The notes below the pieces were generated by a model. It was given only the letters and a program-made list of their open reading frames with translations. It was not told the origin of the DNA and did no database searches. Both the position numbers and the translations under genes were made by a program. This document shows, one piece after another, positions 1,691 through 38,167 of a DNA stretch of 64,000 nucleotides. Every line of letters begins with the position of its first letter. Within the stretch, counting starts at the first letter, position 1. The stretch is from Candidatus Poribacteria bacterium (GTDB taxonomy: Bacteria > Poribacteria > WGA-4E > PCPOR2b), in assembly GCA_965116925.1 (NCBI GenBank), contig OZ220744.1, positions 5,931,757 through 5,995,756 of the forward strand, written 5' to 3'.

Positions 1691-1930
1691 ACTCTCTTTT
1701 TGATTCATATAAAGAGAAAATGTGAGATATGAAGCGAAATCGTAGGGGCGGGGTTTCCCCGCCCGCAGTAGGGGTTAGGTCACCTAACCCCTACAAAGCC
1801 CGATTGCTGTTGCGCGCTTTCTTAACATCAGCCACTCATATTATCCTATAACGTCCACCTGTCAATTAAAATATCTTGCTTTTCCAAATTATTTTCTTTA
1901 TCATGGTACGGGGACAGAAAGGGTGAGGTA

Positions 1931-3034: not shown

Positions 3035-3078
3035 TCGCGGATCCTTTCATTGAGTCAACAACTAGAAAGATTGAAACT

Positions 3079-4227
3079 ATGCCGAATCAATTCATCAAAA
3101 TTATTGTCGCAGTTCTTCTTTCCTTTTCCTCACCTCCTCTGTGGGCGGGTGAGATTGAATCAGAAGTCAAAGCACTGGAAGCACGATTGATCTATGAAGA
3201 AGCTGTTAAGCGGGTTGTCGATGGGGAATACGATGCAGCCCTCAGACGACTGGACTGGCTTAGTGCTTCCTATCCCGAAACAGCACATGGGCGATTGGCA
3301 ACGGATAAAAAGCAGGAAATTGCTATTTTGCTACAGCAACCCAAACCGATCAGCGGCATAAGCAGGGCGGGACTTGTTAGTTTCGGTACGCTCTTTACGA
3401 CATGGCTAGGTGTTGGCGCGCTGATACTTGCGGATGTAGAGGATCCGGTCCCTTACGGGCTTGTTCTGATTGCGGGGCCCGTAGGCGGATTAGCCGGCTC
3501 TTTAAGCCTCACGCGGAACATCGAACTGAGCGATGGGCAGGCTTCATTGATTAATCTTGGAGGCGTTTGGGGTATCTGGCAAGCGGTCGGAGCAGCTGCC
3601 CTTGCTGATGCCAGTGAAAAGCCGACTGTGTATGCTAGCATGGTGGGCGGTGCTCTTGGATTGGCGTTGGCTAGCAGTATTGTCAAAGGCAGAGACATCA
3701 GTCCCGGTGATGCAACGCTAATCAATTTCGGCGGGATCTGGGGAACATGGTTTTCGATTTGTGGGGCGATGGCTGCTCGCGACAGGAGCCGTGATAACAG
3801 CAAATTTGTTCTCGGCAGTGCAATGATGGGCGGCAATGTTGGACTATCAGCCATGGCGGCGTGGTCAACGAAACTGAATATGAGTCGTGCTCGCGCCCGT
3901 CTTATCAATATCGGAGGCATCGTAGGTACACTCTACGGTTTAGGCACAAGTATTCTGCTTGATATTGAGCCGGAGGACCGGAGTTTTTGGTCACTCATGG
4001 GAATCGGCGGTGTGGTTGGGTTGACAGCGGGTTCCTATTTTACCCGAAACTACGACGCTCCAGAGAGTTATTTCACAGAAAGTGGTGTGGGGTTACTGAA
4101 TCTTGAACCCGTTGAGAAGAGATGGGACCTATCTTTTCCATCGATTACTATTTCCCCTATCAGTAACAGAGATTCGCGGATTCCTGATGTTGAATTGCGG
4201 ACATCGTTGATTCAGGTTCAGTTCTAA
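3079..4227 (+). CDS. signal-peptide membrane protein with triplicated LINxGGxWGTW repeat (paralog 2 of 1931..3034)
   Basis: Same architecture as its neighbour (ASLINLGGVWGIWQAVG, ATLINFGGIWGTWFSIC, ARLINIGGIVGTLYGLG). Ends in Phe. The ORF opens at a TTG at 3031 overlapping the upstream stop. The ATG at 3079 (MPNQFIKIIVAVLL..., signal-like) is the likelier start. Confidence 0.55.
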   Translation: MPNQFIKIIVAVLLSFSSPPLWAGEIESEVKALEARLIYEEAVKRVVDGEYDAALRRLDWLSASYPETAHGRLATDKKQEIAILLQQPKPISGISRAGLVSFGTLFTTWLGVGALILADVEDPVPYGLVLIAGPVGGLAGSLSLTRNIELSDGQASLINLGGVWGIWQAVGAAALADASEKPTVYASMVGGALGLALASSIVKGRDISPGDATLINFGGIWGTWFSICGAMAARDRSRDNSKFVLGSAMMGGNVGLSAMAAWSTKLNMSRARARLINIGGIVGTLYGLGTSILLDIEPEDRSFWSLMGIGGVVGLTAGSYFTRNYDAPESYFTESGVGLLNLEPVEKRWDLSFPSITISPISNRDSRIPDVELRTSLIQVQF

Positions 4228-4265
4228 CAGCAGAGGTCGGAGAGGAGCACCGCAATACAGGCATA

Positions 4266-5486
4266 ATGAACAAGGTTGAGGGGGCACACTCCACAACAGA
4301 TCAGACGCATCCTAATTTTCCGGATAGGACTACCATCCGGGCGTACTATGTCGGTATGTTTCTCTACTGGGGCGCGCTATATGTCTACTCGCCGATTTTA
4401 TCCGTATATGCTCAGTCGTTGGGTGCCTCGTTCACGACAGTGGGAATGGTTGTCGGGGCATACGGCTTCGTACAGATGTGGCTGCGAATTCCGTTGGGTG
4501 TATGGTCAGATCGGTTGGGACGGCGCTTGCCCTTTCTTTACGCTGGGCACTTTTTCAACCTCGTCGGGTGTTTAGGGCTTGCGATGGCACCGACACCGAT
4601 GTACCTTGTGATCTTCCGTGGCGTGCTTGGTGTCAGTGCCGCCACATGGGTTGCGTTCACTGTGCTATTCGCTAGTTACTTCCCGCCGAATCAGAGTCCC
4701 AAGGCGATGGGTGTTGTTACGGCTATCAATGGCATCTCGCTTATTGTCGTCAATGGACTCGGCGGTCAAATCGCTCAGATGTGGGGGATGGGTGCTACGT
4801 TCTACGTTGGTGCGATTCTGGCGGCTATAGGTCTCATAGCAACCATACCTATTAAGGAACATCGGGCGACGCGTCAACCTCCTACATTTCGACAAATATG
4901 GCGTGTCATCACACACCCTGCCCTGATGCTCATTGCGATTATCACGGCACTCAATCACTACTCATTTTGGGCGACTACCTTTGGTTTTATTCCGCTCTAT
5001 GCGGAGAATCTGGGGGCAAGCAAATTGGTGCTCGGCATCATTGGGGTAGCGGCGCTGGTGCCCTATACGTTAACCGCTCCGATGAACCATCACTTTGCTG
5101 CTCGCTTGGGCGAAAACCGCGCTGTTTTTGTGGGAATTATGGTGATGGCGGCGACGATGCTTGTTGTCCCCTTAATCAACAATATCCCGCTGCTGGCAGT
5201 TTCCCAAGGCGCGAGCGGGTTTGGACGGGGGCTTGTGTACCCTTTGTTGATGGGACTGAGTATCCGAGAGATATCTGGTGAGGACCGGGCGACAGCAATG
5301 GGTGTGTTTCAAGCGGTGTATGCGATCGGTATGTTTTTGGGACCAATGACCGCTGGTGCCGTCGCCGATGTGGTAGGGCTTTCTGGGGCGTTCATCATTG
5401 CCGGCACGGTTTCAGTGATTGCAGCGATAGCAGCTTTAATCCTCTTGAGACGGACAAACGATCTCTCAAAACGTGGAGGGGCATAA
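4266..5486 (+). CDS. MFS transporter
   Basis: 406 aa with 12 predicted TM helices. MFS motif-like GxLxDRxGRR (SDRLGRRLP). Confidence 0.8.
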   Translation: MNKVEGAHSTTDQTHPNFPDRTTIRAYYVGMFLYWGALYVYSPILSVYAQSLGASFTTVGMVVGAYGFVQMWLRIPLGVWSDRLGRRLPFLYAGHFFNLVGCLGLAMAPTPMYLVIFRGVLGVSAATWVAFTVLFASYFPPNQSPKAMGVVTAINGISLIVVNGLGGQIAQMWGMGATFYVGAILAAIGLIATIPIKEHRATRQPPTFRQIWRVITHPALMLIAIITALNHYSFWATTFGFIPLYAENLGASKLVLGIIGVAALVPYTLTAPMNHHFAARLGENRAVFVGIMVMAATMLVVPLINNIPLLAVSQGASGFGRGLVYPLLMGLSIREISGEDRATAMGVFQAVYAIGMFLGPMTAGAVADVVGLSGAFIIAGTVSVIAAIAALILLRRTNDLSKRGGA

Positions 5487-5503: not shown

Positions 5504-6307
5504 TCACAGTTTTCCGTCCGCCCGCATTCGGGCTCCATAGGCTTCGATCTCGGTTTTTTCCTCTGGCGTGAGTGTATGGCGATCGGACAGTGCGGAGGCA
5601 ATCCGACTGAAGCGGGGCACGTTTCGCAAGCCCATGATAGTTAGACCCACTGACTCATGGCTGAGGACATAGCGATAGAATTGTTCTTCTGCCGGCGCGC
5701 CTGCGCCATCGAAGAGTTTATCGTTTCGTGACGCATTCATAATCACTACGCCGGTGTTATACTTGTGTGCCTCCGGAAACACGGTGCCCTCCGGCTCCTT
5801 CATGGCGCAATTGTACCAACATAACACAGTATCAAAAAATCCGGTCGCAACCGCCTGCCCGATCTGTTCCCAATCGTGACCCGTAACACCGATGAAGCGA
5901 ATTAGTCCTTCCTCGCGCGCTTTTTGAACCGCTTCCAGCGCGCCATCGGCTGCCAGCGCACGATTTCGTTCCTCTTCGGTGTTCAGATGGTGGAGTTGGT
6001 AGATGTCGATGTAATCTGTTCCCAATAGGCGCAGCGATGTTTCAAGATCCCGACGTGCCCCTGCGGCATCGCGCTGTTGAGTCTTGGTTGCTAGAATCAA
6101 TTCATGCCGCCGTCCTTGGATGGCATTTCCGATAACCCTTTCGTCGTCTCCATCCCGATACGCTCGGGCTGTATCCATATAATTGACGCCACAGTCTAAT
6201 GCGGTTCTATACCCATCAGCAGTTTCGCAATATGCACCGCCGGTGCCGAGTCGAGTTACGACCAATCCTGTTCGACCAAGAGTTGTTCGGGGAATCTGAT
6301 CTGCCAT
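5504..6307 (-). CDS. aldo/keto reductase family oxidoreductase
   Basis: AKR hallmarks: GLVVTRLGTGGA, YMDTARAYRDG, IDIYQLHH. 267 aa is short for the family. Confidence 0.75.
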   Translation of the reverse strand: MADQIPRTTLGRTGLVVTRLGTGGAYCETADGYRTALDCGVNYMDTARAYRDGDDERVIGNAIQGRRHELILATKTQQRDAAGARRDLETSLRLLGTDYIDIYQLHHLNTEEERNRALAADGALEAVQKAREEGLIRFIGVTGHDWEQIGQAVATGFFDTVLCWYNCAMKEPEGTVFPEAHKYNTGVVIMNASRNDKLFDGAGAPAEEQFYRYVLSHESVGLTIMGLRNVPRFSRIASALSDRHTLTPEEKTEIEAYGARMRADGKL

Positions 6308-6390
6308 GAGCGTACACCTCCGTGATTATCTTATCGTTCTAATCGCTATACACTTATTGACCTGCTGGAGTTGTGTCGGTTCATTAGTTC

Positions 6391-6655
6391 ATTATAGTAG
6401 ATTTTAGAATTAATGGGACACGCCTCCCCGGTAGGTGCGGTTTGATGAAGTTTAAGTATTTAAATCGGTAATCCCGATTTTCCTCGAAACATCCGGTAGG
6501 CGCGGTTTTATGAGATTTAAGTATTTAAATCGGTACTTCCGATTTCCCTCGAAACACACGGTAGGCGCGGTTTTCCCCCGCGCCGATGTCGCTAGCAAAT
6601 TACCGAACTGTTTTTTTAATTTTCATCCAACCGCACCTACCGGGGGGACGCAATT
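6391..6655. repeat. composite repeat region: partial MITE-like element (family B) with internal 2 x roughly 66-bp tandem repeat and CCGGTAGGYGCGGTT arms
   Basis: 6391-6443 is the reverse complement of the right end of the 8308-8416 element. The tandem units 6444-6509 and 6510-6575 each end in CCGGTAGGCGCGGTTT. The complementary arm AACCGCACCTACCGG lies at 6631-6647. Confidence 0.7.
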
Positions 6656-6826
6656 TTGAATGCACTATAATTATACCTGTTTGTGAGGGTGTGTCAATCC
6701 AAAAGGTAAGATTGGGGTTCAAGGAAATCTGCTTGACATGCCATCTATCAGTCGTTAAAATATATCAGATCCCAACATGTTTCGCAACGTCTGTTAAAAA
6801 TAACCGAGTACGAGGAGTTTCGCTAT

Positions 6827-7174
6827 ATGCCGACATACGAATATAAATGCCTGGATTGTGGCATCCAGTTTGAGCGGTTTCAAGGTATTACCGAAGATCC
6901 CATCCAGGAATGTCCCGAATGTTCAGGTCAGACCAAGCGGTTAATCGGTGCTGGTGCCGGGCTGATTTTTAAGGGTTCAGGCTTCTACATCACGGACTAT
7001 CGCAGTGAAGGATACAAAGAGAGCGCGAAAAAAGACAAAGATTCGTCATCGAGCAGTGGTGGGGATAGCAAAAGTGGCGAGAGCAAAAGCGGAGATAGTA
7101 AAAGCGGCGATTCTAAATCTAGCAAGACAGAGAGCAGTGATTCTTCCAAATCGACTTCAGATGCAAGTGCTTGA
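6827..7174 (+). CDS. FmdB-family zinc-ribbon protein with Ser/Lys-rich low-complexity tail
   Basis: MPTYEYKCLDCGIQFE...CPECSG gives a CxxC...CxxC zinc ribbon typical of the FmdB regulatory family. C-terminal (SKSGD)n tail. Confidence 0.7.
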   Translation: MPTYEYKCLDCGIQFERFQGITEDPIQECPECSGQTKRLIGAGAGLIFKGSGFYITDYRSEGYKESAKKDKDSSSSSGGDSKSGESKSGDSKSGDSKSSKTESSDSSKSTSDASA

Positions 7175-7306: not shown

Positions 7307-8272
7307 ATGGACCACACGCACCATCATCATGACCACGCGCATCACCACCATGATGAAAAGGAAGATGGGCATCAACATAGTCATCAGCATCGCCTACAGG
7401 GAAAATTTCGATTCGCAGTCCTATTGACAACCTTTGTGCTCGTGATCGAGGTAGTCGGGGGGATCCTGTCGAACAGTTTGGCATTGTTGAGCGATGCAGC
7501 ACATGTTTTCTCAGATTCTCTGTCGCTGATTATGAGTTGGCTGGCGATCTATTTGTCGACCCGCCCGGCAACTAGCTCACGCACCTATGGCTATCACCGG
7601 ACAGAGGTATTCGCTGCGTTCATCAACGGGGTTTCACTGATTGCGATCTCTAGCTGGATATTTTACGAAGCTGTCCACCGGTTTATCGAACCTGAACCCG
7701 TTAAGAGCAAAGAGATGCTCGTCGTGGCGATTATCGGATTTATCGCAAATATGCTCATTGTCTGGCTATTTCACGGTGAAGGGCATAAAAGCCTCAATGT
7801 GCGGAGTGCGGTACTTCATGTCATTGGAGATGCGCTCGCTTCCGTCGGCGTCATCGTAGGCGGGGCGATAATATATTGGACCAGTTGGTTCATTGTTGAT
7901 CCAATTCTGAGCTGCGGTATTGGTCTGGTGGTCTTGATTGGTGCGGTCAGGGTTACGAAAGAAGCAGTTCACATCTTGTTGGAAGGGTCTCCAAAACATG
8001 CGGATGCCCACAAAGTGGCGGCGTGCATCAGTGCTATCGATTCAGTTAAGGATGTCCATGACATGCACATTTGGTCTTTATGCTCTAATTATTTGGCGTT
8101 GAGCACGCATGTGTCGATCGCTGAGGACGCAAGCAAATCCTCACACGAATTACGGCAGGAGATTAACGACAAACTACAAGTGCAATTTGGTATTTTCCAC
8201 ACGACAATTCAGATTGAACAGCCCGGTTGTCCCCACGAGGGAAATCTGCTGTGTAACGCATCCCACCACTGA
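7307..8272 (+). CDS. cation diffusion facilitator (CDF) family metal efflux transporter, CzcD/ZitB-like
   Basis: His-rich N-terminus (HTHHHHDHAHHHHD). Six TM helices. CDF signature region (SDAAHVFSDS..., HVIGDALASVGVI). Confidence 0.8.
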   Translation: MDHTHHHHDHAHHHHDEKEDGHQHSHQHRLQGKFRFAVLLTTFVLVIEVVGGILSNSLALLSDAAHVFSDSLSLIMSWLAIYLSTRPATSSRTYGYHRTEVFAAFINGVSLIAISSWIFYEAVHRFIEPEPVKSKEMLVVAIIGFIANMLIVWLFHGEGHKSLNVRSAVLHVIGDALASVGVIVGGAIIYWTSWFIVDPILSCGIGLVVLIGAVRVTKEAVHILLEGSPKHADAHKVAACISAIDSVKDVHDMHIWSLCSNYLALSTHVSIAEDASKSSHELRQEINDKLQVQFGIFHTTIQIEQPGCPHEGNLLCNASHH

Positions 8273-9609: not shown

Positions 9610-9791
9610 CGTATATCCCTTTCTAGTCGGAGAACCGTCAACGTTCTGACAATTCTTGCGTTCCTAGTTTGTATCTTATCACACGCCTCGTGGGATTACA
9701 AGATAGATCTTGGCGGTTGTGCAACGCCTACGATGGTACTGTATACCGAACACGTAATGCGTAAAGAAGAGATATTACGTATTTTATTTTT

Positions 9792-9875
9792 GGTTCATAT
9801 CAAAAGCAAGTGCAAAATGCGAAGAGAAACCGAGTTTTTCCGAAAAAACTCGATTTCTTTGTACTATTTCTTAAC
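9792..9875. repeat. REP-like element family A, long form (GGTTCATATCAAAAG...GAAACCGAG-T6-loop-CTCGATTTC)
   Basis: Hairpin 9826-9857 with a 13-bp stem. The 5' extension GGTTCATATCAAAAGCAAGTGCAAAATGCGAAGA is shared with copies at 17171, 34892 and 36548. Confidence 0.75.
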
Positions 9876-17094: not shown

Positions 17095-17170
17095 GGTATC
17101 CTCCTGTTAGCTGGGGTTAGCAGAAAAACATCCACGAATCCACGCGAATCTTCGCGAATGATATTTTTCT

Positions 17171-17252
17171 AGTTCATATCAAAAGAAAGTGCAAAATGCG
17201 AAGAGAAACCGAGTTTTTTCTTCAAAACTCGGTTTCTTTGCACTATTCCTTA
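17171..17252. repeat. REP-like element family A, long form
   Basis: Hairpin GAAACCGAGTTTTTTCTTCAAAACTCGGTTTC at 17205-17236. Lies between the lipoprotein gene and the CRISPR trailer. Confidence 0.75.
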
Positions 17253-17284
17253 ACATGAGCCTTTTTCTTTTAGGCTCCCTTTCA

Positions 17285-17509: not shown

Positions 17510-20500
17510 CTTGCAGTCTCCTTTTCATCTGGTCAAGGATTGTAACTCTGGTGCTGATAATGATGCTCCTGTTGATGCTTACTTTCAGTCCCCTTTTCAT
17601 CGGGGCAAGGATTGTAACGATTGTGCACCGACTGCGGGAAACACGCCCCAACGCACTTTCAGTCCCCTTTTCATCGGGGCAAGGGTTGTAACCTATCCCC
17701 CTCAATTCTTCGGGAGGCACGGCTGGGCTTTCAGTCCCCTTTTCATCGGGGCAAGGGTTGTAACATTGAAAGGTTACGTGGGACACTGGCACGTGATGAA
17801 CTTTCAGTCCCCTTTTCATCGGGGCAAGGGTTGTAACATATACATCTTCTAATCGTAAGAATTTCGAGTTTACCTTTCAGTCCCCTTTTCATCGGGGCAA
17901 GGGTTGTAACATTGAAAGGTTACGTGGGACACTGGCACGTGATGAACTTTCAGTCCCCTTTTCATCGGGGCAAGGATTGTAACCAAGTCCTCAATCTTCT
18001 TCAGGTGGATTATTGCGTTTGCTTTCAGTCCCCTTTTCATCGGGGCAAGGATTGTAACTAGGTTCTATATTCCCCACAGGTGAGACGATTCAACCCTTTC
18101 AGTCCCCTTTTCATCGGGGCAAGGATTGTAACACGCACGCTGCCACTCATCAGCTCATGGTGCATCCCCTTTCAGTCCCCTTTTCATCAGGGCAAGGATT
18201 GTAACGCCGATTTTGGCACGGATCAACGCAAAATCGCCTCCTTTCAGTCCCCTTTTCATCGGGGCAAGGATTGTAACCATCGTTGGGCGTGGTATAATCG
18301 ACTACAGTTTGCATCTTTCAGTCCCCTTTTCATCGGGGCAAGGATTGTAACGCCGATTTTGGCACGGATCAACGCAAAATCGCCTCCTTTCAGTCCCCTT
18401 TTCATCGGGGCAAGGATTGTAACGCCTCACGAATAAAGAAACCTGTCTTTGCTGTGTTCTTTCAGTCCCCTTTTCATCGGGGCAAGGATTGTAACACGCG
18501 CAGACGGGACACCGCGCCGGGTACTGTTGACTGCTTTCAGTCCCCTTTTCATCGGGGCAAGGATTGTAACCTTCACAAGAGACCTTGTGATAGCCGATGA
18601 AGACCTTTCAGTCCCCTTTTCATCGGGGCAAGGATTGTAACCGGAGTCCCCCATCGTCTATCCCCCAACGGCTTCGCTTTCAGTCCCCTTTTCATCGGGG
18701 CAAGGATTGTAACCATGATGATGGCGATTGCATTTCTCACGCAATGCCTGACTTTCAGTCCCCTTTTCATCGGGGCAAGGATTGTAACCATTTAAGCGGA
18801 AATGTCACTACACGCCCTTTTCACCTTTCAGTCCCCTTTTCATCGGGGCAAGGATTGTAACCCTTGACATCGTTTTCCGTAGGCTGCATCAGGATTCTTT
18901 CAGTCCCCTTTTCATCGGGGCAAGGATTGTAACAAGAAGTCTCTATCCTTGACCGTCCCCGTATCGTTGCTTTCAGTCCCCTTTTCATCGGGGCAAGGAT
19001 TGTAACATCATACAGATACATATCTCCCCCAGCCCGTTTACTTTCAGTCCCCTTTTCATCGGGGCAAGGATTGTAACCTCACTCAATGCCGGACGGGTGG
19101 CCGTCTCAAGAGCATTCTTTCAGTCCCCTTTTCATCGGGGCAAGGATTGTAACAAGGCTACCGAGAATCCGACCCGACGATGAGGTGATGCTTTCAGTCC
19201 CCTTTTCATCGGGGCAAGGATTGTAACCTGCAACGCTGCAACGTAAAGTTGACAGTTTGGAACTTTCAGTCCCCTTTTCATCGGGGCAAGGATTGTAACC
19301 ATGCGATGGGCAGGGCTGATACCCCTGTTGCGTGGTCTTTCAGTCCCCTTTTCATCGGGGCAAGGATTGTAACACCAACGATTCAGTGGAACGCCACTGG
19401 ATAGCGTTCTTTCAGTCCCCTTTTCATCGGGGCAAGGATTGTAACACAGCTACATCACCAGCAGCAGTATTATTACAGATGCCTTTCAGTCCCCTTTTCA
19501 TCGGGGCAAGGATTGTAACGACAAATATAAAACCCAAAGGGTAAAGGGCCGTTAGTCTTTCAGTCCCCTTTTCATCGGGGCAAGGATTGTAACGACACCA
19601 GTAAACAAGCGGAGGCATTCCCGGACTATTCTTTCAGTCCCCTTTTCATCGGGGCAAGGATTGTAACGACAACATCGCAGCAGGCAAAAAGTTTGTGCTG
19701 GACTTTCAGTCCCCTTTTCATCGGGGCAAGGATTGTAACTACACCAGTCTATCGGCAGTACAACTTCAAAGGGACTTTCAGTCCCCTTTTCATCGGGGCA
19801 AGGATTGTAACTGATAGATTTTGAAATAGGTAGGCGCGACTGCACGGTCTTTCAGTCCCCTTTTCATCGGGGCAAGGATTGTAACCAAGCCAATCTACAA
19901 GCACATTGACCATTTACAAGCTTTCAGTCCCCTTTTCATCGGGGCAAGGATTGTAACGCAGCTAGGGAAAACTATGACGGCTTTGTGTTTGCTCTTTCAG
20001 TCCCCTTTTCATCGGGGCAAGGATTGTAACGTCATTTGCGGAGATTGTGAATTTGACCGGGAACCAGCTTTCAGTCCCCTTTTCATCGGGGCAAGGATTG
20101 TAACGACCATTAGGGGTGTCCTTCTCTTTCATGATGTATGCTTTCAGTCCCCTTTTCATCGGGGCAAGGATTGTAACCTTGAAACTACAGTTGAGATGGT
20201 TTCTCCTTGCCTGCCTTTCAGTCCCCTTTTCATCGGGGCAAGGATTGTAACCTATTCTCCTTCCTCGCTGGTGTCCTCTACGGTGCTTTCAGTCCCCTTT
20301 TCATCGGGGCAAGGATTGTAACGTTTCTGATTAAGCGGGTGGTGTGCCCTGTTTTGCCTTTCAGTCCCCTTTTCATCGGGGCAAGGATTGTAACTGTGTA
20401 ACTTCTGGTCCGAGCGGTGGCATCTCGATCACTCTTTCAGTCCCCTTTTCATCGGGGCAAGGATTGTAACAGTATTAGATCCTATAACAGGTGCTGTGAT

Positions 20501-21873
20501 AATTGCTTTCAGTCCCCTTTTCATCGGGGCAAGGATTGTAACAGAGTTTAGCGAATAGCGTTATTAACCCCAAAGTGCCTTTCAGTCCCCTTTTCATCGG
20601 GGCAAGGATTGTAACCTATAAATACCGCCCGCAACATTATATCTATCACCACCCTTTCAGTCCCCTTTTCATCGGGGCAAGGATTGTAACATAACTTATT
20701 CGCAGATAATCAACGATAGATCAGGCTTTCAGTCCCCTTTTCATCGGGGCAAGGATTGTAACCAGCGAACAGCAGTAGAAACACATCTAACAGGCGGTCT
20801 TTCAGTCCCCTTTTCATCGGGGCAAGGATTGTAACTACGGAAGCAAAGAAGTATATCGGCTTGGATGAAGCTTTCAGTCCCCTTTTCATCGGGGCAAGGA
20901 TTGTAACTGCTTGGACGTAACTTGGACGGGACGGCGGTGGGATCTTTCAGTCCCCTTTTCATCGGGGCAAGGATTGTAACCTTTTGGACGGCAGATGCGA
21001 CGCTGCCGTACACAAGCTTTCAGTCCCCTTTTCATCGGGGCAAGGATTGTAACCAGCAGGGCGTGTGTTGTATGAGCCATTCGAGTTCTTTCTTTCAGTC
21101 CCCTTTTCATCGGGGCAAGGATTGTAACCACCGTGATTAGTCTGAATCCTCTACCGTATCAAACAGCTTTCAGTCCCCTTTTCATCGGGGCAAGGATTGT
21201 AACTATCAATATCATGGTGTTTTCTCCCGTCTTGGTATCCTTTCAGTCCCCTTTTCATCGGGGCAAGGATTGTAACGTCAAATGTTCCGAACATACGCAT
21301 AGCAGATATTGATCTTTCAGTCCCCTTTTCATCGGGGCAAGGATTGTAACTGAGCCGTCCGTCGGGGGACACTACCTGCCTAAGACTGCTTTCAGTCCCC
21401 TTTTCATCGGGGCAAGGATTGTAACCAACAATTCGACTTTAGAGGTGAACGCTCGGAACAGTCTTTCAGTCCCCTTTTCATCGGGGCAAGGATTGTAACA
21501 TGGGTAGTGGCACGACGGCTGTGGCTGCTAAGGAATTCTTTCAGTCCCCTTTTCATCGGGGCAAGGATTGTAACACATGAACAGACAAGCGCAGCAGCAG
21601 CCACACTCGCATCTTTCAGTCCCCTTTTCATCGGGGCAAGGATTGTAACCGCTCCGATGGATACAGGATACGGGCAGAGGTGGACTTTCAGTCCCCTTTT
21701 CATCGGGGCAAGGATTGTAACACGGGCGGGCTGTGGATTGGGCTAAATGACCTGTGGGCATCTTTCAGTCCCCTTTTCATCGGGGCAAGGATTGTAACAT
21801 AATATGTATTACAAAGGCAAAGCACTAAAACGTAGGCTTTCAGTCCCCTTTTCATCGGGGCAAGGATTGTAAC
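17510..21873 (-). CRISPR. CRISPR array, 60 repeats / 59 spacers, 37-bp repeat CTTTCAGTCCCCTTTTCATCGGGGCAAGGATTGTAAC (+ strand as given; crRNA likely from - strand: GTTACAATCCTTGCCCCGATGAAAAGGGGACTGAAAG)
   Basis: Repeat starts: 17510 (degenerate, 4 mismatches), 17582, 17656, 17728, 17801, 17874, 17947, 18022 ... 21762, 21837. Spacers 34-40 bp. Repeats at 17656-17910 carry a GGGTTGTAAC variant and 18169 carries CAGGGC. Degenerate repeat at the low-coordinate end and AT-rich leader plus cas genes at the high end give a minus-strand orientation. Confidence 0.97.
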
Positions 21874-22274
21874 CGACTATGGGCAGCACTCATAAATCGC
21901 TCCAAAATATAGAAAATATCTATGTTTTTGAAGCATTCTCTGTATCATGGCATGAAACGCCTCTGTGTTCAAGAAAAAAGTGTATATCTTCAGCGTGTCT
22001 TGTGTTCATCAGTATCGGTGGGATTCGGATCGTTATTTTCGCAAATCCCCGTTGTCAGTGTCATGCTATCTGTTTGGCTATGGAGACCAGAGACAGTCAG
22101 TCGCAAATCGATCTTCCTACAGATTTGGGTAGGTACAAGACCTACCCCTACAGTCTTCGTTTTGATTAAGACGGTGTAAACTCTGCTTTGAGTAGGCACA
22201 AAGCCTGACCCTACAGTATCTTCTTTTTCGCAAATTGCCCCGTCTTTTCCGCAGAAACTTGGTTTGCGAAATTC
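21874..22274 (-). promoter_or_regulatory. CRISPR leader (AT-rich, between cas4 stop and first repeat)
   Basis: About 400 bp of AT-rich non-coding sequence abutting the newest-end repeat (21837-21873). Contains two roughly 30-bp imperfect direct repeats (22125-22155, 22180-22212). Confidence 0.7.
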
Positions 22275-22847
22275 TCATAATACATCGGCACAGAATCGAC
22301 GAAATTCACACTCGACGCATTTGCCGCGCTGTGGTGTCGGTGGAGGCATCCACTCCTCTGATAGCATACGCCGTATCTGTTTGATAGCGTCGAGAGTCCT
22401 GCGCCTAAGTGTCTCTGAAATCGGAACTGGTGTGATGCGCCCTGTAGGGATCCGATAGATGAACCCTTGAGACACCGATTGACCGAGACACTCCTCCACC
22501 ATCAGCGCGTAGGCTGTCAACTGATACTTCGCGTTCAGATTCAACCGTTGGGTCGTGTCCTTAAACTCGACTGGAAACGCGCCATCTTCGGTCTCAATAA
22601 GCAGGTCGAGCACACCGCTCAGTCCGAGGGACTCGGCGTATAGTGAGATGTGGAACTGACGGCTACCAGCCTCCAGTCCGTAGCGGGAGAGGGTTCGCCG
22701 TCGCTCTAAGACGCTTAGGATTTCGTGTTGGACCGCGCCGATTTGCATCGGGTGCGTCGTTGGGCGGGTCACGGGGGTGTAGTAGGTGTGGTAGACCACC
22801 CGTGGACAGTAGAAGTATTGTTTGATGTCGCTGACCCGTATGTTCAT
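22275..22847 (-). CDS. cas4: Cas4 (RecB-like nuclease with C-terminal 4-Cys Fe-S cluster)
   Basis: N-terminal YFYCPRVVY. C-terminal CVECEFRRFC. Start overlaps the cas2 stop by 4 bp. Confidence 0.85.
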   Translation of the reverse strand: MNIRVSDIKQYFYCPRVVYHTYYTPVTRPTTHPMQIGAVQHEILSVLERRRTLSRYGLEAGSRQFHISLYAESLGLSGVLDLLIETEDGAFPVEFKDTTQRLNLNAKYQLTAYALMVEECLGQSVSQGFIYRIPTGRITPVPISETLRRRTLDAIKQIRRMLSEEWMPPPTPQRGKCVECEFRRFCADVL

Positions 22848-23095
22848 TTTCCATTCTCCTCAATGACGGTTCGTTTGTCGTAGTCTTTTGCACACACGCT
22901 AAGGATCTCGATCTTCCCTTCCGCTTTGCCGAGTTGTTCGGTCAGTTTCTCCTCCAATGCGCGCCGCCGGGTTGTGTTGATGTCACCGAGGAATGCGCTG
23001 TACTGGATGCGTTTTAAGCCGTAGTCGAGGCAGACATCGGCAATCTTTTTGCGGATGCGGTCTTTCACGATGTCGTAGATGACGTAGGTGTGCAT
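22844..23095 (-). CDS. cas2: Cas2
   Basis: 83 aa. MHTYVIYDIVKDRIRKKIADVCLDYGLKRIQYSAF is typical Cas2 (VapD-like fold, conserved Asp near the N-terminus). Confidence 0.85.
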   Translation of the reverse strand: MHTYVIYDIVKDRIRKKIADVCLDYGLKRIQYSAFLGDINTTRRRALEEKLTEQLGKAEGKIEILSVCAKDYDKRTVIEENGK

Positions 23096-23102
23096 GAATT
23101 AT

Positions 23103-23134
23103 AGAAACCGAGTTTTTTCTTGAAAACTCGGTTT
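23103..23134. repeat. REP-like hairpin family A (3' flank of RAYT gene)
   Basis: GAAACCGAGTTTTTTCTTGAAAACTCGGTTTC between the cas2 start and the transposase stop. Confidence 0.8.
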
Positions 23135-23143
23135 CTCTGTCCC

Positions 23144-23710
23144 CTAATCTAACATCAAGTGCTCTATAAACTCCCTATTGGTCTCAGAATACGCACAGAC
23201 GAATTTAGTATAAGCTTGGCGCGAAGGAAGTTGAGACAGTACGATATCAGGTTTGGATAAAGTTCCGTTACGCAAACCGATGTAGTCCTGATAGCTAGAA
23301 AATGTCCAACTTTCTGGATTACTGGCTATCCCCGCCAATACTGGATTTAGGTGAATATAGCGTGAAAGATGTAGAAGATATTCGTTTTTGTCTACTAACT
23401 TTGCCTTAAAGACACCTTGGAAAACTGGTCCCACGCGGTCTTGTTGCCGATTCACAGCTTTGGTGTAGGATACGGTGAATGGTTGCATAATTTTCGTGCT
23501 CAGGTTGTCATCTTTCAGGTAAGCGAGAATGTGGTAATGATTCGGCATAAGACAATAGGCGACAATTTCAATTAAATCAGGAAGGCAGTAGTGGCGTAAG
23601 CGTTTTATAAAGTATCCCCAGTTTTCCTTATCAAAGAAGATGGGTTGACGGTTTACGCCGCGGTTGTATAAATGGTAATAATGTCCTGCTCTAAATTGAA
23701 CGTCTCGCAT
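23144..23710 (-). CDS. Y1 HUH transposase, IS200-like / REP-associated tyrosine transposase (RAYT)-like
   Basis: HUH motif LMPNHYHIL. C-terminal Tyr motif RYIHLNPV. 188 aa, longer than IS200 TnpA. Flanked on both sides by family A hairpins. Confidence 0.75.
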   Translation of the reverse strand: MRDVQFRAGHYYHLYNRGVNRQPIFFDKENWGYFIKRLRHYCLPDLIEIVAYCLMPNHYHILAYLKDDNLSTKIMQPFTVSYTKAVNRQQDRVGPVFQGVFKAKLVDKNEYLLHLSRYIHLNPVLAGIASNPESWTFSSYQDYIGLRNGTLSKPDIVLSQLPSRQAYTKFVCAYSETNREFIEHLMLD

Positions 23711-23932
23711 CTATGGTGTCTCCCAGAAACCGAGTTTTTTCTTCAAAACTCGGTTTCTATCGGTTTCTAAATGTGTTGTACCTTAAATCGGTAATTTGGT
23801 ATCTATGGTGCGTCCGAGAAACTGCTCGCCTGCAACCTTCCACACACGCTCCCATGAAAATTGGGAGTTTCGTATCTATGACGTGTCCAAGAAACTAAGT
23901 TTTGAAGAAAAAACTGAGTTTCTAAACTTTTT
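23711..23932. repeat. REP cluster upstream of RAYT gene: 3 x roughly 80-bp direct repeats each ending in a family A hairpin
   Basis: TATCTATGGTGYSTCCSAGAAAC repeated at 23709, 23790 and 23866. Hairpins at 23726-23757 and 23891-23922. Confidence 0.7.
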
Positions 23933-25040
23933 ACCATGTGGCGGTGAAGGGGTGATAGTCTCGTTCGCGGCGTAGGTGCATGGCGAGGTGACGCGCTTGG
24001 AGCTGGATGATGTTGCAGAGTTTTTGCGCTTTTCGCTCGAATCGTTCGGTTTCTTGAAGTCTCGCCAGTACGCGATCGGCAAGGGCGCGTCGGGTCGCTT
24101 GGCTGAGGCGGCGTTGTGTTGGGGTTTCGGTCTCCGCATCGGGTTTCGAGGATTGGTGCACGGCTTTGGCGGCGTCGCTGTCGGGGTCTTCCCACTCGAC
24201 TTTGAATCGTTTGTTGATCATCGCGAACACGACCCGATCCACGACGGGTTGGCGGAACTCTTCGATGAAGTCTAGCACCAGTGAGGGTTTGCCGGGGCGA
24301 TCGACGTGCAGGAATCCGGCAAACGGTTCTAGCCCTGCCAGTGTGAGCGCGCTCCAGACTTGTGAGTAGAGTATGCCGTAGCCGTAGTTGAGCAGTGCGT
24401 TCACGTCGTCGGTTGCGCCTTGATGGTTGCGAGTGGTGAAGCGTCCGGCGGGCAGCAGGCGTTGGACGCATTCCCAGTAGAGGGCACCGGCGCGTCCTTC
24501 AAGGTTCAGTAGTGTGCTACGTGCATTGTCGATTGGCGGTTCGCTGACTGCAGCAACGGTTGGGGATTGAACGTCCTGGATTTCGTCAATCAGTCCTTCG
24601 ATCTTTGTGAGTCGTTCCATCAGTTCGGCGTATTTTTTGGGTGCCTGTTTTTTGCGGTATTTGCCGAAGTAGCGAACGAGGTTGATCTGGTTCTTCAGCT
24701 TGCCAGTAGCAAACTGTTTGGCGATCTCTAGGCCGCGCTCGTCGTGGTAGGCGGCGAGTTGTTCGCGCCTTGAGATCACGGTCGCTGTCAGGGACGGGCT
24801 GTTGAGTTTCGCATACGGTTTGCCGTTGAAGCTGAGGAATGCGATTTCGATGCCGCGCTCGGTACAGGCTTCAATGAGATCTGAGGACATGCTGACGCCA
24901 CGTGAGGTGATGACGATTTGATCGAGGTCCATCAGGGGGTGTTCCTCTTTTTCGCGGTCTTTGTCTCGGTATCGGACGCTGACGCGCTCGGAGCGTTTGC
25001 CGAGGTATGTGCCGTAGTCGGAGATGATGAGTTGTTCCAT
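23931..25040 (-). CDS. cas1: Cas1 integrase
   Basis: MEQLIISDYGTYLGKRSERVSV is a typical Cas1 N-terminus. Conserved acidic and His residues present. SD-like AAGGAAA upstream of the 25040 ATG. The ORF opens at 25094. Confidence 0.85.
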   Translation of the reverse strand: MEQLIISDYGTYLGKRSERVSVRYRDKDREKEEHPLMDLDQIVITSRGVSMSSDLIEACTERGIEIAFLSFNGKPYAKLNSPSLTATVISRREQLAAYHDERGLEIAKQFATGKLKNQINLVRYFGKYRKKQAPKKYAELMERLTKIEGLIDEIQDVQSPTVAAVSEPPIDNARSTLLNLEGRAGALYWECVQRLLPAGRFTTRNHQGATDDVNALLNYGYGILYSQVWSALTLAGLEPFAGFLHVDRPGKPSLVLDFIEEFRQPVVDRVVFAMINKRFKVEWEDPDSDAAKAVHQSSKPDAETETPTQRRLSQATRRALADRVLARLQETERFERKAQKLCNIIQLQARHLAMHLRRERDYHPFTATW

Positions 25041-25343
25041 TTTTCTGTTTCCTTTCGATCCGCTGCTTGCGTCGGTCTTGAATTTCGGGTACACTTTAAT
25101 AACCTAATAGGACTTACGCAGTTGATATAAATATCGCCGCTGCCTTCGTGGCGCGGTGCCTGCTCTTGAAGAAATTGGGGGTTCCCAGTCTGCAATAGTG
25201 GGTACAGGTTGCCTAACCTGTACGGGGTGTGCGATGTTTGCCAGCGAAGTGCGTAACTCCTACCTAAGTTGCTATTCGTTGAAAGTCCACCGTTTTTTAT
25301 CAGGGCAGAACCTCCCCGACCATCTGGTAGGTCCTTTGTCTTT

Positions 25344-28975: not shown

Positions 28976-28999
28976 AGAGACCTCCCAATTTAAGGATGA

Positions 29000-29030
29000 G
29001 AAACCGAGCTTTTCCAAAAAACTCGGTTTC
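29000..29030. repeat. REP-like hairpin family A in the 65-bp cas7-cas5 intergenic spacer
   Basis: GAGAAACCGAGCTTTTCCAAAAAACTCGGTTTC. Confidence 0.8.
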
Positions 29031-29040
29031 TTCTCCGTTA

Positions 29041-33419: not shown

Positions 33420-33487
33420 TGGTGTTTCCTTTTCTCATATAGCCCGCTTTTCATCGCGGTATGTAAGGGATGATGAGGAAAGCCTCA

Positions 33488-33537
33488 GAAACCGAGTTTT
33501 TCGGAAATGGGCGGGGAAACCCCGCCCCTACGGTTTC
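33488..33537. repeat. compound REP: family A stem enclosing a family C GC hairpin (GGGCGGGGAAACCCCGCCC)
   Basis: AGAAACCGAGTTTTTCGGAAATGGGCGGGGAAACCCCGCCCCTACGGTTTCT between the WYL gene and cas6. Confidence 0.7.
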
Positions 33538-33589
33538 TGGGTATAATCGGGAGTCATTATACCATCCGAGAGTGCAATATATACGCACT

Positions 33590-34561
33590 TTACTTTTTAT
33601 TGTAAATTTGCTGCATTTTTTTAATTTCCGCCTTGATCTCATGGCGGAGGCTTTCGGGTTCAACGACTTCTGCATGTGATCCGTAGCCCATCACCCACCG
33701 CTTCACTTCGCCCAACCCACCGACTCTCAGACGGAGTATCAGTTCACCGGAAGGCAGCTCCTCGATCTGTTGGCTGGGGTGCCATTCGCGTTCCCTGATC
33801 CAGCGTGCCTGATATTCGTCAAATTTGATGACGATATTTTCGGGTTCTGTCGCCCGTTCAGCGAGAAACCCAGCCTCTAAGTAGGCATTGAGTGAAAAAT
33901 CCGGGGGGACTTGGAAAGAGGATAGTAGGTGTTTATACGCTTTGATGCGGCTGGTGAGAAAGTCCCGGGGTTCGCGTCGGGTATGACAATAGGCGATTAA
34001 ATACCAATCACCCTGAATGTTATGGAGATGGTATGGATCAACAATGCGTGTGCTTGTTTGACCGCTACTCGCTGAATAGTACTCTATTTCAATTGAGTAT
34101 CTTGAAAGGATAGCCTCGTTGAGTTCAAGCAGTAATTCTGGATCAACTATCGCTCTGCCGCCGCCTGTGAAGGTAAACGCAGCGGTTTTCCTTTGTGCAT
34201 CGTAGCTTACACTCTCTGGCAGATGTTGTTTTATCTTATCGAGTGCGAGTCGAAGCGGCGTTTCAAAAGGAGTGCCCAGATACCGTCTAAATAATTCTTC
34301 TCCCAGAAAAAAAGCGGTAATTTCTTCGCTTGTCAGCATTATTGCAGGAAGGAAATAGGTGGGATCCGTGTAGTACCAACCGTTTCTGGTTCTGTCATAT
34401 TTGATAGGCGCGCCAAAGCGGTTTATCAGAAATTTCCTATCTTCGTAGGCGATTCGGGTGCTGCGGAGTTCAAAGTGTGCCTGGACTGTATGGGCGTTTG
34501 GATACCTTTCTCTTTGAATCTGATCATCAATCCAGTAAATTCTTTCCAGCTTGGTAGACAT
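33590..34561 (-). CDS. WYL-domain transcriptional regulator (wHTH + WYL + C-terminal WCX), CRISPR-associated by position
   Basis: N-terminal HTH (LERIYWIDDQIQRERYPNAHTVQAHFELSTRIAYEDRKFL). WYL region (IEIEYYSASSGQTSTRIVDPYHLHNIQGDWYLIAYCHTRREPRDF). Directly upstream of cas6 on the same strand. Confidence 0.75.
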   Translation of the reverse strand: MSTKLERIYWIDDQIQRERYPNAHTVQAHFELRSTRIAYEDRKFLINRFGAPIKYDRTRNGWYYTDPTYFLPAIMLTSEEITAFFLGEELFRRYLGTPFETPLRLALDKIKQHLPESVSYDAQRKTAAFTFTGGGRAIVDPELLLELNEAILSRYSIEIEYYSASSGQTSTRIVDPYHLHNIQGDWYLIAYCHTRREPRDFLTSRIKAYKHLLSSFQVPPDFSLNAYLEAGFLAERATEPENIVIKFDEYQARWIREREWHPSQQIEELPSGELILRLRVGGLGEVKRWVMGYGSHAEVVEPESLRHEIKAEIKKMQQIYNKK

Positions 34562-34891
34562 TTGGTGTGATTTCCTTTCGCCTTAGTAGGGATTTACTCA
34601 TGATATACACATGGTGCCCCACTGGGGCTAAAAAACTTGGGATGTCCTTGGTGCTATACACATATCACACCTCTGGGGCTATGTTGTTTCATTGGTGTTG
34701 GGTTTTACTGTCGTTCAACCCAACCTACGAGAATTACTGTTATATACAAAAAGGTTACGGCATACGGAGTATGCCTACTACTTTGTAAGATCGGGATTCC
34801 ATGTCTTAAAAGATACAGGATAGACCAACCATAGTGCAAATTTAAAAATGGCAGTTTGAAACTAATAGTTTGACTCTGCAAAAAATAACTT

Positions 34892-34960
34892 GGTTCATAT
34901 AAAAAGAAGGTGTAAAGCGTGAAGAGAAACCGAGTTTTTTCTTCAAAACTCGGTTTCTGT
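34892..34960. repeat. REP-like element family A, long form
   Basis: GGTTCATATAAAAAGAAGGTGTAAAGCGTGAAGA followed by the hairpin 34926-34957. Confidence 0.75.
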
Positions 34961-35023
34961 GTTGGAGATTGTTTGAAACGGTTCGGTGGGAGGCGAAATT
35001 ACTGAGAGAGGTAAGGGTGGGTA

Positions 35024-36516: not shown

Positions 36517-36547
36517 CGGCTTCTACCTCCTCTCTGTTCAAAAATAG

Positions 36548-36611
36548 TTCATGTAAAAGGAAAGTGTGAATTACGAAGAGAAACCGAGTTTTGAAGAAAA
36601 AACTCGGTTTC
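36548..36611. repeat. REP-like element family A, long form
   Basis: GTTCATGTAAAAGGAAAGTGTGAATTACGAAGA followed by the hairpin GAAACCGAGTTTTGAAGAAAAAACTCGGTTTC. Confidence 0.75.
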
Positions 36612-36622
36612 TGTTTCATGAT

Positions 36623-38167
36623 TTAGAAGTTTGGGAACGTCAAGGGTTGGTCGGTGAAGACCTTTCCATCGGTTGTTGAGACCTCCTCCACGATTGGCTT
36701 GAAGCCCATCCCATCTAGCACATCGCGTTGGATGTCAATTCCCGGCGCAACTTCCTTTAGCTCGACGCCACGATTTGTCAGTTGGAAGGTCGCGCGCTCG
36801 GTAACGTACAACACCTCCTGCCCTGTTTCGCGGGCGTATCTGCCGCTGAAGGTAATCTGCTCAACCTGTTCGACGAACTTGGGGATCGTACCTTCCTTAA
36901 CGACCTTGACCCCCCCATCTTGAATCTCGACCTCTGACTTCACGGCAAGGGTGCCGCAGAAGACCACCTTCTTCGCATTCTGGGAGATGTCGATGAAACC
37001 GCCGCAGCCGGGGATGCGACTGCCAAATTTGCTGACGTTCACGTTGCCGTGCCCGTCTACTTGGGCGTGCGAGAGGAACGCAATGTCGATCCCGCCGCCC
37101 TGATATGAGTCGAACTGATAGGGCTGATCCAATATTACCATCGGATAGTACATCGCACCGGAATCGAGTCCGCCTGCGGGAATACCGCCCAAGCTGCCCT
37201 GTTCGATGCTGAGGGTGATCTGATCCTCGATCCCGCTCTCTTCGGCGATCATCCCGACACCGAAGGGCATACCGAATCCGAGGTTCACAACAGCATTCGG
37301 ACGTAGTTCCAACGCCGCCCGTTTGACAATGACTTTGCGCTCATCGAGCGAGAGCCTCCCCATACTCAGATCGCCTTCGCGAGCCTCGCCGCACAGTGCT
37401 GGATCAAAGTCGATCTGGTAGGTCTGTTTCTGATCTGGGGCAAGCACAAGGGCATCGACAAGGGTGCCGGGTATCTTGACCATACGGGGATCGATGCCAC
37501 GTTTTCCAACCATGCGCTTAACCTGTGCGATGACCTTTCCCCCGGAGTTCCGAGCGGCTTGTGCATCCGAAAGCATTTCAAAGTAGGCTGCCTCATCCTC
37601 CATTGAAATATTCCCATCGGGATCGGCGGTGGTGCCGCGGATGAAGGCGACATTGACGGGGAAGCTGTGGTACATAAGATACTCCTTGCCCCGCAATGTG
37701 ACCACTTCGACCAGATCTTCTGTTGCGCGTGTGTTGAGTTTGCCGCCTTCGATTCGGGGGTCTGCAAATGTGTGCAAGCCGACATGGGTAATGTATCCGG
37801 GCGCACCGGCAGCGATGCTCCGCATCAAGCACGACAATGCACCCTGCGGGAGGTTGTACGCCTCAGTTTTGTTTTCGATAGCGAGTTTTGCCATCGGTGG
37901 TGACATCCCCCAATGTCCGCCGATGTCCCGTTTAATTAGGCGTGGATCGGCGAGGTGTCCCAAGCCGAGTTGCCCCTGATCTCCCATCCCGCTGATGTGA
38001 ACAACGGTCAGGTCGCGCGGCTGAAGCGTTGACCGGAATCGTTTCCCCAACGCCTCAATAAGTTTTTCGGGGATGGCGTGTCCTGCGCCGCTTCCCCCGA
38101 TAACGAGGGTATCCCCACTTTGTACCATCTGCACAGCTTCTTCTGCGGTGATAATCGGTTTTATCAT
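36623..38167 (-). CDS. acyl-CoA:acetate/3-ketoacid CoA-transferase (fused alpha-beta, YdiF-like)
   Basis: 514 aa. N-terminus MIKPIITAEEAVQMVQSGDTLVIGG (CoA-transferase family I). SENG-like glutamate region. Confidence 0.7.
   Translation of the reverse strand: MIKPIITAEEAVQMVQSGDTLVIGGSGAGHAIPEKLIEALGKRFRSTLQPRDLTVVHISGMGDQGQLGLGHLADPRLIKRDIGGHWGMSPPMAKLAIENKTEAYNLPQGALSCLMRSIAAGAPGYITHVGLHTFADPRIEGGKLNTRATEDLVEVVTLRGKEYLMYHSFPVNVAFIRGTTADPDGNISMEDEAAYFEMLSDAQAARNSGGKVIAQVKRMVGKRGIDPRMVKIPGTLVDALVLAPDQKQTYQIDFDPALCGEAREGDLSMGRLSLDERKVIVKRAALELRPNAVVNLGFGMPFGVGMIAEESGIEDQITLSIEQGSLGGIPAGGLDSGAMYYPMVILDQPYQFDSYQGGGIDIAFLSHAQVDGHGNVNVSKFGSRIPGCGGFIDISQNAKKVVFCGTLAVKSEVEIQDGGVKVVKEGTIPKFVEQVEQITFSGRYARETGQEVLYVTERATFQLTNRGVELKEVAPGIDIQRDVLDGMGFKPIVEEVSTTDGKVFTDQPLTFPNF

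Follow-up and report, generated by a model that had tools for sequence, protein, structure and literature searches.

A RAYT gene bracketed by REP palindromes, a probable REP/RAYT system of Poribacteria, between cas1 and cas2 of a type I-B CRISPR-Cas locus

Quentin et al. 2018 (PMC6006769) list the motifs DH[VI]H and Y[IV]ENQ for class 1 IS200 TnpA proteins and Y---NP for all class 2 proteins, which are of the type of the REP-associated tyrosine transposases (RAYTs; REP, repetitive extragenic palindrome). Within class 2, subclass 2.1 (Bertels group 1) has the signature NH[YF]H, FQ and Y[IV]HLNP, and it was reported without REP-like sequences beside the gene (PMC6006769). REP superfamilies are defined by a 5' GTAG (or CGTC) tag (PMC3733652). 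Here we describe a RAYT-type gene and its flanking palindromes between cas1 and cas2 of a CRISPR-Cas locus, in a 64-kb stretch of contig OZ220744.1 from a Candidatus Poribacteria bacterium (the whole stretch is hereafter referred to as the window). We consider it probable that this unit is a REP/RAYT system ("REPtron") of Poribacteria that was inserted once in a type I-B adaptation module and has been inherited with it. Its presence in a CRISPR locus is most readily accounted for by hitch-hiking at a place where it is tolerated, and not by a CRISPR function.

The gene occupies positions 23144-23710 on the minus strand and encodes a RAYT-type Y1 HUH transposase of 188 amino acids, in which both motifs named in the original prediction are present: the HUH motif PNHYHIL (H57-Y58-H59) and the catalytic tyrosine, Y117, in RYIHLNP. 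The HUH motif and the tyrosine are retained without exception in 38 homologues of 63-93% identity. The protein scored 34.7 bits against Pfam Y1_Tnp (cut-off 23), and its sole NCBIfam match was REP_Tyr_transpos (NF047646), at 71.5 bits and E 6e-20, a score below the equivalog cut-off of 80 bits; no IS200 model was matched in this NCBIfam scan. The E. coli TnpA-REP structure 4ER8 was the sole PDB sequence match, and it was also the best Foldseek match of an AlphaFold model of the protein (pLDDT 79, pTM 0.78), with E 3e-8 over 154 columns. The TnpA proteins of IS200, IS608 and ISDra2 followed with values of about 5e-5 to 1e-4 over 105-135 columns, roughly 1000-fold worse than 4ER8. When set against the published table (PMC6006769), the motifs NHYH and YIHLNP are of the class 2 type and not of the IS200 type. 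By hidden Markov model and fold comparison, the protein is closer to E. coli TnpA-REP than to IS200/IS608 TnpA, and these matches, together with the dispersal of the palindrome without the gene described below, bear out the earlier designation of the protein as a RAYT and not an IS200 transposase. Judged by its motifs, it would be a class 2 Y1 HUH single-strand DNA endonuclease/transferase, with the palindromes as putative substrates.

The palindrome is a perfect 34-nt sequence, AGAAACCGAGTTTT-N6-AAAACTCGGTTTCT, with a 14-bp stem and a 6-nt loop, and it is found on both sides of the gene as had been claimed. The 3' hairpin (23103-23136) lies 7 nt past the RAYT stop codon and 7 nt ahead of the cas2 ATG (single-stranded DNA fold -13.8 kcal/mol, z = -6.6), and it is present at the equivalent place in the related loci L002, L003, L005, L006, L101 and L182 (the window locus being L001). 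The 5' hairpin (23725-23758; -13.9 kcal/mol, z = -5.9) lies 14 nt upstream of the RAYT ATG and is conserved in relatives, and a degenerate hairpin (23890-23923; -7.7 kcal/mol, z = -3.1), with the left flank AAAGTTT, is located 7 nt past the cas1 stop codon. Searching the window with the half-site GAAACCGAGTTTT yielded 21 matches versus 1.8 expected, a count that 0 of 100 shuffles reached. In total, the window contains nine full hairpins and one disrupted copy (about 10 in 64 kb vs about 1 expected), with starts at 9826, 17205, 23104, 23726, 23891, 29000, 33488 (the disrupted copy), 34926, 36580 and 48966, in agreement with the earlier claim of at least ten recurrences. At least seven copies identical to the RAYT-flanking pair stand in the window without the gene. 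Palindromes without the gene include a solo hairpin at 17204-17237, one in the cas7-cas5 gap (28999-29031), one in the gap between the WYL-domain gene and cas6 that is disrupted by a nested GC-rich palindrome (33487-33538) and that has REP-RAYT-REP as its counterpart at the same site in L004, and the other dispersed copies at 9825-9858, 34925-34958, 36579-36612 and 48965-48998. The 16-mers of the hairpin, with seven occurrences, are the most frequent 16-mers of the window outside the CRISPR array, and at window scale the sequences flanking the gene thereby behave as in the flanking 16-mer criterion of Bertels et al. 2017. Palindrome density was 0.08-0.4 per kb in loci of the poribacterial clade compared to 0.017 per kb in loci outside it, which total 1.18 Mb. 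An Rfam scan of the whole window gave no match, and a terminator scan did not flag the palindromes, which have no T-run after them. Loop orientation was tried as a marker of REP orientation and was rejected, as it flips freely between orthologous copies.

Two further features of the palindromes were observed. A second GC-rich palindrome, GGGGCGGGG-N3-CCCCGCCC, is nested in the REP hairpin loop in the window (33497-33527) and in L003 (5942-5965), and it may belong to another family of small repeats, one that targets the REPs. Four REP copies (9790-9875, 17170-17255, 34890-34975 and 36545-36630) share an additional conserved arm on the left (GTTCATATCAAAAGnAAGTGCAAAATGCGAAGA, about 35 nt) and an arm on the right (TTTGCACTATT). 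They form a larger composite element with the hairpin at its core.

The exact RAYT protein occurs at one place in the 6.6-Mb source contig and in one copy in the window; diverged paralogues may exist elsewhere. Relatives with the gene order cas1-RAYT-cas2-cas4 were found in L003 (RAYT 91% identical to that of the window), L006 (89%), L005 (79%, with a type I-D Csc2 effector), L101 (72%) and L182 (68% over an interrupted alignment, the RAYT being interrupted by about 150 nt), and in L002 (92%) cas1 is split, with cas2 and cas4 located by tblastn. In L004 (81%), for which the locus sequence ends in cas3, the gene lies between the WYL gene and cas6. In all of these loci (L002-L006, L101 and L182), the palindrome is present at both gene ends, as in the window. 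A RAYT with 89% identity has one locus, among the matches listed, in OZ252032.1 (a Candidatus Poribacteria metagenome-assembled genome), and P0013, P0016 and P0021 were each found in one constant context across samples. Repeat and gene content had at first pointed to a cyanobacterial origin, a reading that was dropped because OZ252032.1 is the nearest species-representative genome. As a separate observation on L182, the interrupted RAYT spans 6247-6960, and cas5 and cas3 are each split in two open reading frames (1356-4424); these interruptions mean either that the entire locus is decaying or that the long reads contain indel errors.

Sister genomes also contain the cas1-cas2 junction in states that lack the gene. 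In L097 and L098 (Cas1 85% identical), the cas1 TAA is followed by 8 nt and the cas2 ATG, with no hairpin, and in L099 and L100 (Cas1 about 90%), the junction reads TGGTAAAAAGTTT, one hairpin and ATAATTTATG, the same sequences that border the occupied site on its outer sides in the window and in L003. These empty and solo-REP sites support the original prediction that an insertion splits cas1 from cas2, and the two genes are indeed contiguous in sister genomes. L099 has a cas2 product 100% identical in amino acid sequence to that of the RAYT-bearing L006 (dS, synonymous divergence, 0.10) and a cas4 product 98% identical, and the two loci group together in the Cas1 tree; from this near-identity and grouping it follows that L099 lost the RAYT and kept one palindrome. 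The second site with both solo-REP and REP-RAYT-REP states is the WYL-cas6 gap, where the solo hairpin of the window has flanks homologous to those of the REP-RAYT-REP unit of L004. In a neighbour-joining tree, the L004 RAYT falls inside the cas1-cas2 RAYT clade as sister to L005, and because of this nesting L004 is read as a relocation to another REP site of the same locus. The simplest history consists of a single gain, a single loss and a single move, and the neighbour-joining trees of the RAYT and of Cas1 are both consistent with it.

Divergence and selection measurements place the RAYT with its neighbours. Pairwise omega values (NG86) were 0.07-0.19 for the RAYT, 0.05-0.14 for cas1, 0.03-0.17 for cas2 and 0.04-0.12 for cas4. 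Between L001 and L003, RAYT dS was 0.52 versus 0.50 for cas1, 0.51 for cas2 and 0.53 for cas4, and between L001 and L002 it was 0.33 versus 0.47 for cas2 and 0.35 for cas4. As RAYT dS is close to the values of its cas neighbours in these closer pairs, the insertion is old, and inheritance has been predominantly vertical at a stable locus. In the deepest pairs, L001-L005 and L001-L101, RAYT dS (0.68 and 1.25) was clearly below cas1 dS (1.43 and 2.12), in a range where dS nears saturation. The RAYT has been inherited with the adaptation module under purifying selection since a single entry.

Arrays of RAYT-bearing loci with the same 37-nt repeat had no shared spacers among the window (59 spacers), L002 (16), L005 (43), L006 (35) and L101 (7); as a positive control, L099 and L100 have 8 of 10 spacers in common. 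The lack of shared spacers indicates that spacer turnover continued with the insert in place, although Cas1-Cas2 may alternatively have been supplied in trans. Comparison of the spacers with the masked window and all loci revealed no self-targeting of the RAYT, the REPs or their neighbours. Outside the RAYT-bearing set, L097 and L098 have identical Cas1 proteins and arrays (15 and 24 repeats) without a shared spacer in an 18-mer test, which implies very fast turnover or array replacement.

Beyond this clade, the RAYTs of a sister clade (72-76% identity) reside in unrelated operons, co-directional with their neighbours at gaps of 55-180 nt, and are bracketed by AGAAACC...GGTTTCT palindromes. 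In L086 the gene lies between an ABC ATPase and its permease, in L088 between a 566-amino acid gene and a Wzy_C gene of a polysaccharide locus (with a compensatory stem CCAGG/CCTGG on both flanks), and in L092 between an SNF2/PLD helicase and an MmeI-type methyltransferase. No cas1, cas2 or cas4 was found near L007-L096 or L102-L181, nor near any of the approximately 160 homologues listed at 66% identity or less, and a scan of JGI metagenomes gave no relative above 66% identity and no cas context among the matches listed. About 15 distant homologues (including those of L007-L009, L012, L015-L020 and L027) are bracketed by lineage-specific palindromes, which range over 31-39 nt with most near 33 nt and agree fully or almost fully between the two sides of a gene; their hosts belong to the Anaerolineae, Chloroflexota, Leptolyngbyaceae and Pirellulaceae. 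Such co-variation of palindrome and protein lineage is as expected of a RAYT and its cognate REP. Over 62 loci, neighbour orientation was (+,+) in 28 and (-,-) in 8, counts that come from a crude open reading frame caller and are indicative only. In a side observation on L092, three REP-like hairpins (5968-5999, 6418-6448 and 7359-7390) lie in frame in the uninterrupted 1158-amino acid SNF2/PLD helicase open reading frame and translate as ETKFFRKNSVS, ETEFLGETQFL and QKPSFSGETRFL, reminiscent of the Rickettsia palindromic elements in coding genes.

In the history that we propose, the gene and its palindromes would have entered the 8-nt cas1-cas2 junction of a cas1-cas2-cas4 module once, and the protein would act on the palindromes as single-stranded DNA, as E. 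coli TnpA-REP does (PMC3479197). The cassette would be a REP-delimited unit, such that exchange between the flanking palindromes could remove it while one palindrome stays, as in L099, and a lone palindrome elsewhere could receive it, as at the WYL-cas6 site of L004. This exchange could be RAYT-catalysed cleavage and joining of single-stranded DNA or ordinary recombination between the 34-nt repeats, both of which fit. More broadly, mobility in this RAYT family may take the form of promoter-less cassettes, bounded by REPs, that enter operons co-directionally at existing REPs, which we regard as likelier than a CRISPR role. The original prediction had proposed that the insert could uncouple cas1 from cas2/cas4 or mark crosstalk between REPs and CRISPR adaptation. 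Neither proposal gained support: the spacer sets downstream of RAYT-bearing modules are wholly different, the closest RAYTs outside the clade sit in unrelated operons, and L099 lost its RAYT yet kept its cas genes and array. The place itself is unusual, as had been stated, and literature searches on RAYTs with CRISPR or cas1, and on Poribacteria with REPs, found nothing relevant.

Several observations weigh against the reading of the unit as a REP/RAYT system in a tolerated position. The REP_Tyr_transpos score falls short of the equivalog cut-off, and by the motifs NHYH, FQ and YIHLNP the RAYT resembles subclass 2.1, which was reported as not REP-associated. No GTAG or CGTC adjoins the hairpin, the foot of which is AGAAAC...GTTTCT; this tag, which group 2 and 3 RAYTs recognise, is a mark of the REP superfamilies and not of all RAYT partners. 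The REP count and the RAYT copy number rest on the 64 kb of the window and short related loci and not on a whole genome. Finally, all eight CRISPR-located RAYTs belong to one clade, and their stability could reflect a function in the locus as well as tolerance.

A rival explanation is that in this clade the CRISPR adaptation module has taken over the RAYT as an accessory gene, for example as a single-stranded DNA nuclease that feeds or trims prespacers for Cas1-Cas2-Cas4 or as a REP-dependent regulator of the dosage of Cas1 versus Cas2/Cas4. The gene is within cas loci in 8 of 8 clade members, always on the cas strand and with omega values as low as those of the cas genes; its sole relocation did not leave the cas locus and placed it immediately after the putative cas promoter, and two or more effector types accompany the insert-bearing module, namely I-B in the window, L003 and L101 and I-D Csc2/Csc1 in L002 and L005. 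However, these eight cases amount to one evolutionary event and one move, the cas association is limited to L001-L006, L101 and L182 with no cas1, cas2 or cas4 near the approximately 160 listed homologues, and the sister clade shows the same bracketing in ABC-transporter, Wzy and SNF2-methyltransferase operons. The palindromes are not specific to CRISPR, the RAYT is interrupted in L182, and cas1, cas2, cas4 and the array remain intact in L099 without it, and we therefore hold recruitment as an accessory cas gene to be very improbable.

An autonomous IS200-type element that recently hopped into the cas1-cas2 spacer, with the palindromes as its ends, would account for the Y1_Tnp domain, the length of about 660 bp, the hairpins near both ends, the absence from some relatives and the different sites occupied in L004, L086, L088 and L092. 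This is also very unlikely, as no NCBIfam IS200 model matched, the motifs are NHYH/YIHLNP instead of DH[VI]H/Y[IV]ENQ (PMC6006769) and the fold is nearer to TnpA-REP. Moreover, both "ends" are the same perfect palindrome, which is found about eight more times in the window without the gene, the exact protein is confined to one locus per genome, and a dS close to that of the cas neighbours in the closer pairs indicates an old insertion. The least credible explanation, which we regard as having hardly any chance of being correct, is that the palindromes are ordinary terminators or RNA-stability hairpins unlinked to the protein and that the bracketing is coincidental in a hairpin-rich genome. Hairpins are indeed present in many intergenic regions, other cas genes included (29000), but with 10 copies in 64 kb we estimate a probability of about 2e-4 that each end of the gene would by chance have a copy within 50 nt, and the bracketing recurs in every relative. 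The palindromes are also not of the kind flagged by the terminator scan, with no T-run following, and the change of the palindrome with protein lineage in the distant homologues is held to refute this explanation.

The sequence of the cassette contains indications of how the RAYT gene may be expressed. A ribosome-binding site, GGGAGA, as read from the sequence, is located at 23719-23724 on the minus strand, directly after the 5' hairpin, and GGGAGACACCATAG-ATG is conserved in L001, L003 and L006. As this site is present, a promoter scan found no promoter-like site upstream of the RAYT, and the gene is on the same strand as cas1 and cas2, the RAYT would most likely be expressed by read-through of the cas transcript. 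REPs damp downstream expression in E. coli operons, and by analogy the flanking hairpins may, speculatively, damp cas2/cas4 expression relative to cas1. A promoter-like TTTTCA-17-TATAAT, which is a consensus match only, spans the 3' hairpin and its flank (23098-23126, minus strand), ends 4 nt before the cas2 ATG and may, also speculatively, drive cas2; L002, L003 and, at its solo-REP site, L099 have the motif GGTTTCTATAATT(C/T)ATG as well. Upstream of the gene, the region 23759-23889 (minus strand) contains two decayed partial duplicates of the hairpin, ribosome-binding site and first approximately 10 RAYT codons, along with a stray half-site at 23759-23768. Three 80-bp direct repeats had been claimed here; three units are real, but they are looser than stated: they are spaced 92 and 73 nt apart and share a core of 39 nt at 69-79% identity. 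Units homologous to the decayed duplicates are found in L002 (2 x 82 nt) and L182, and the upstream repeat units are decayed partial duplicates of the 5' end of the cassette.

The surrounding genes form a type I-B CRISPR-Cas locus, as TIGR01908, TIGR02585, TIGR01895, TIGR01587 and TIGR01596 all scored above their cut-offs, with a weak match for Cas6. On the minus strand, cas1 extends over 23931-25094 (Pfam Cas_Cas1 253 bits, TIGR00287 242 bits; gene callers place its start at about 25040, for 369 amino acids), cas2 over 22844-23095 (Pfam CRISPR_Cas2 60 bits, also matched in NCBIfam) and cas4 over 22275-22847 (TIGR00372 125.6 bits). The CRISPR array (17514-21877, minus strand) has 60 copies of the 37-nt repeat, GTTACAATCCTTGCCCCGATGAAAAGGGGACTGAAAG in the CRISPR RNA sense, with the leader on the cas4 side, and upstream of cas1 are cas3, cas5t, cas7/Cst2-DevR, cas8b/Cst1, cas6 and the WYL-domain gene. 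Two spacers are doubled in the array, 17765 being equal to 17911 and 18206 to 18352 (spans 17765-17946 and 18206-18387), which indicates internal duplications of repeat-spacer units. Over 22200-25100 of the window, GC content was 52-61% for cas1, cas2 and cas4 and 40-44% for the RAYT cassette, with the effector genes at about 47%; from these differences, the adaptation module and the insert have different compositional histories.

Additional observations were made on the effector side of the locus. The 5'-untranslated region of cas6 contains a CRISPR-repeat-like hairpin, CCGCGATGAAAAGCGG (window 33420-33486, minus strand; also L004 6720-6795), which is preceded by TTACAT and differs from the repeat, which has CCCCGATGAAAAGGGG at this place, by one compensatory base-pair change; from its sequence, this hairpin could be a site of Cas6 binding or autoregulation. 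Just past the WYL stop codon, a palindrome, GTGCGTATATATTGCAC, followed by TATAAT (window about 33555-33595, minus strand) is conserved in L004 (5910-5950) and is a candidate operator/promoter of the cas operon, with the L004 cassette lying between it and cas6. L001/L003, L002 and L099 have the same cas1-cas2-cas4 genes, 37-nt repeat and PDH-E1/transketolase neighbour and three different effector modules at this shared site (I-B Cst1/Cst2/Cas5t, I-D Csc2/Csc1, and Cas3-592aa-DevR-236aa), which suggests effector-module swapping at a fixed chromosomal site.

With this locus, a REP/RAYT system is documented in Poribacteria, with relatives in Chloroflexota, cyanobacteria and Planctomycetota in which the protein lineage co-varies with a palindrome of about 33-34 nt, and by its motifs this RAYT branch is one that had previously been reported as REP-less. 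The natural series of empty site, solo REP, REP-RAYT-REP and relocated cassette shows a RAYT gene that was lost and moved at REPs. The locus also demonstrates long-term evolutionary tolerance, in a type I adaptation operon, of a hairpin-flanked insert of 0.8 kb that separates cas1 from cas2; on present evidence it reveals no new CRISPR mechanism.

Among known systems, integron cassettes (attC) offer a resemblance only, in that a promoter-less open reading frame with a folded palindrome is placed co-directionally behind a host promoter and the site alternates with site-open reading frame-site; here, however, there is no integron integrase or attI, and the cassette encodes its own enzyme, which belongs to the Y1 HUH proteins and not to the tyrosine recombinases. 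IS200, the TnpA-only form of IS200/IS605, has in common with this unit the Y1 HUH fold, a length of about 0.7 kb, end hairpins and the lack of terminal inverted repeats and target duplication, but it differs in motif class, and the unit described here is probably single-copy, is old and is inherited with its neighbours, with end hairpins identical to each other and to solo copies. The likeness to subclass 2.1 ("TIRYT", PMC6006769) is by motifs alone, NHYH, FQG and YIHLNP here compared to NH[YF]H, FQ and Y[IV]HLNP there, whereas the subclass has a median length of 238 amino acids, a helix-turn-helix or DnaA-like tail and no adjoining REPs, as opposed to the 188 amino acids and REP bracketing of the present protein. 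The E. coli REPtron with its TnpA-REP (Bertels group 2, Quentin subclass 2.2, 4ER8) is a single-copy Y1 HUH system, as the present unit probably is. The two have in common one catalytic tyrosine in Y---NP, a gene placed between copies of a palindrome that also recurs across intergenic DNA, and a locus that some related genomes have and others lack (for E. coli, PMC6006769). The two proteins are about 20% identical, with DHLH/YIHYNP in E. coli and NHYH/YIHLNP here, and the E. coli protein has 165 amino acids versus 188 here, where a C-terminal three-helix tail is present. In contrast to the E. coli REP, the palindrome here is a perfect A/T-rich one with a 14-bp stem that starts with AGAAAC and has neither the GTAG guide tetranucleotide nor a bulge, and the gene here, unlike that of the E. 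coli REPtron, is nested co-directionally inside an operon.

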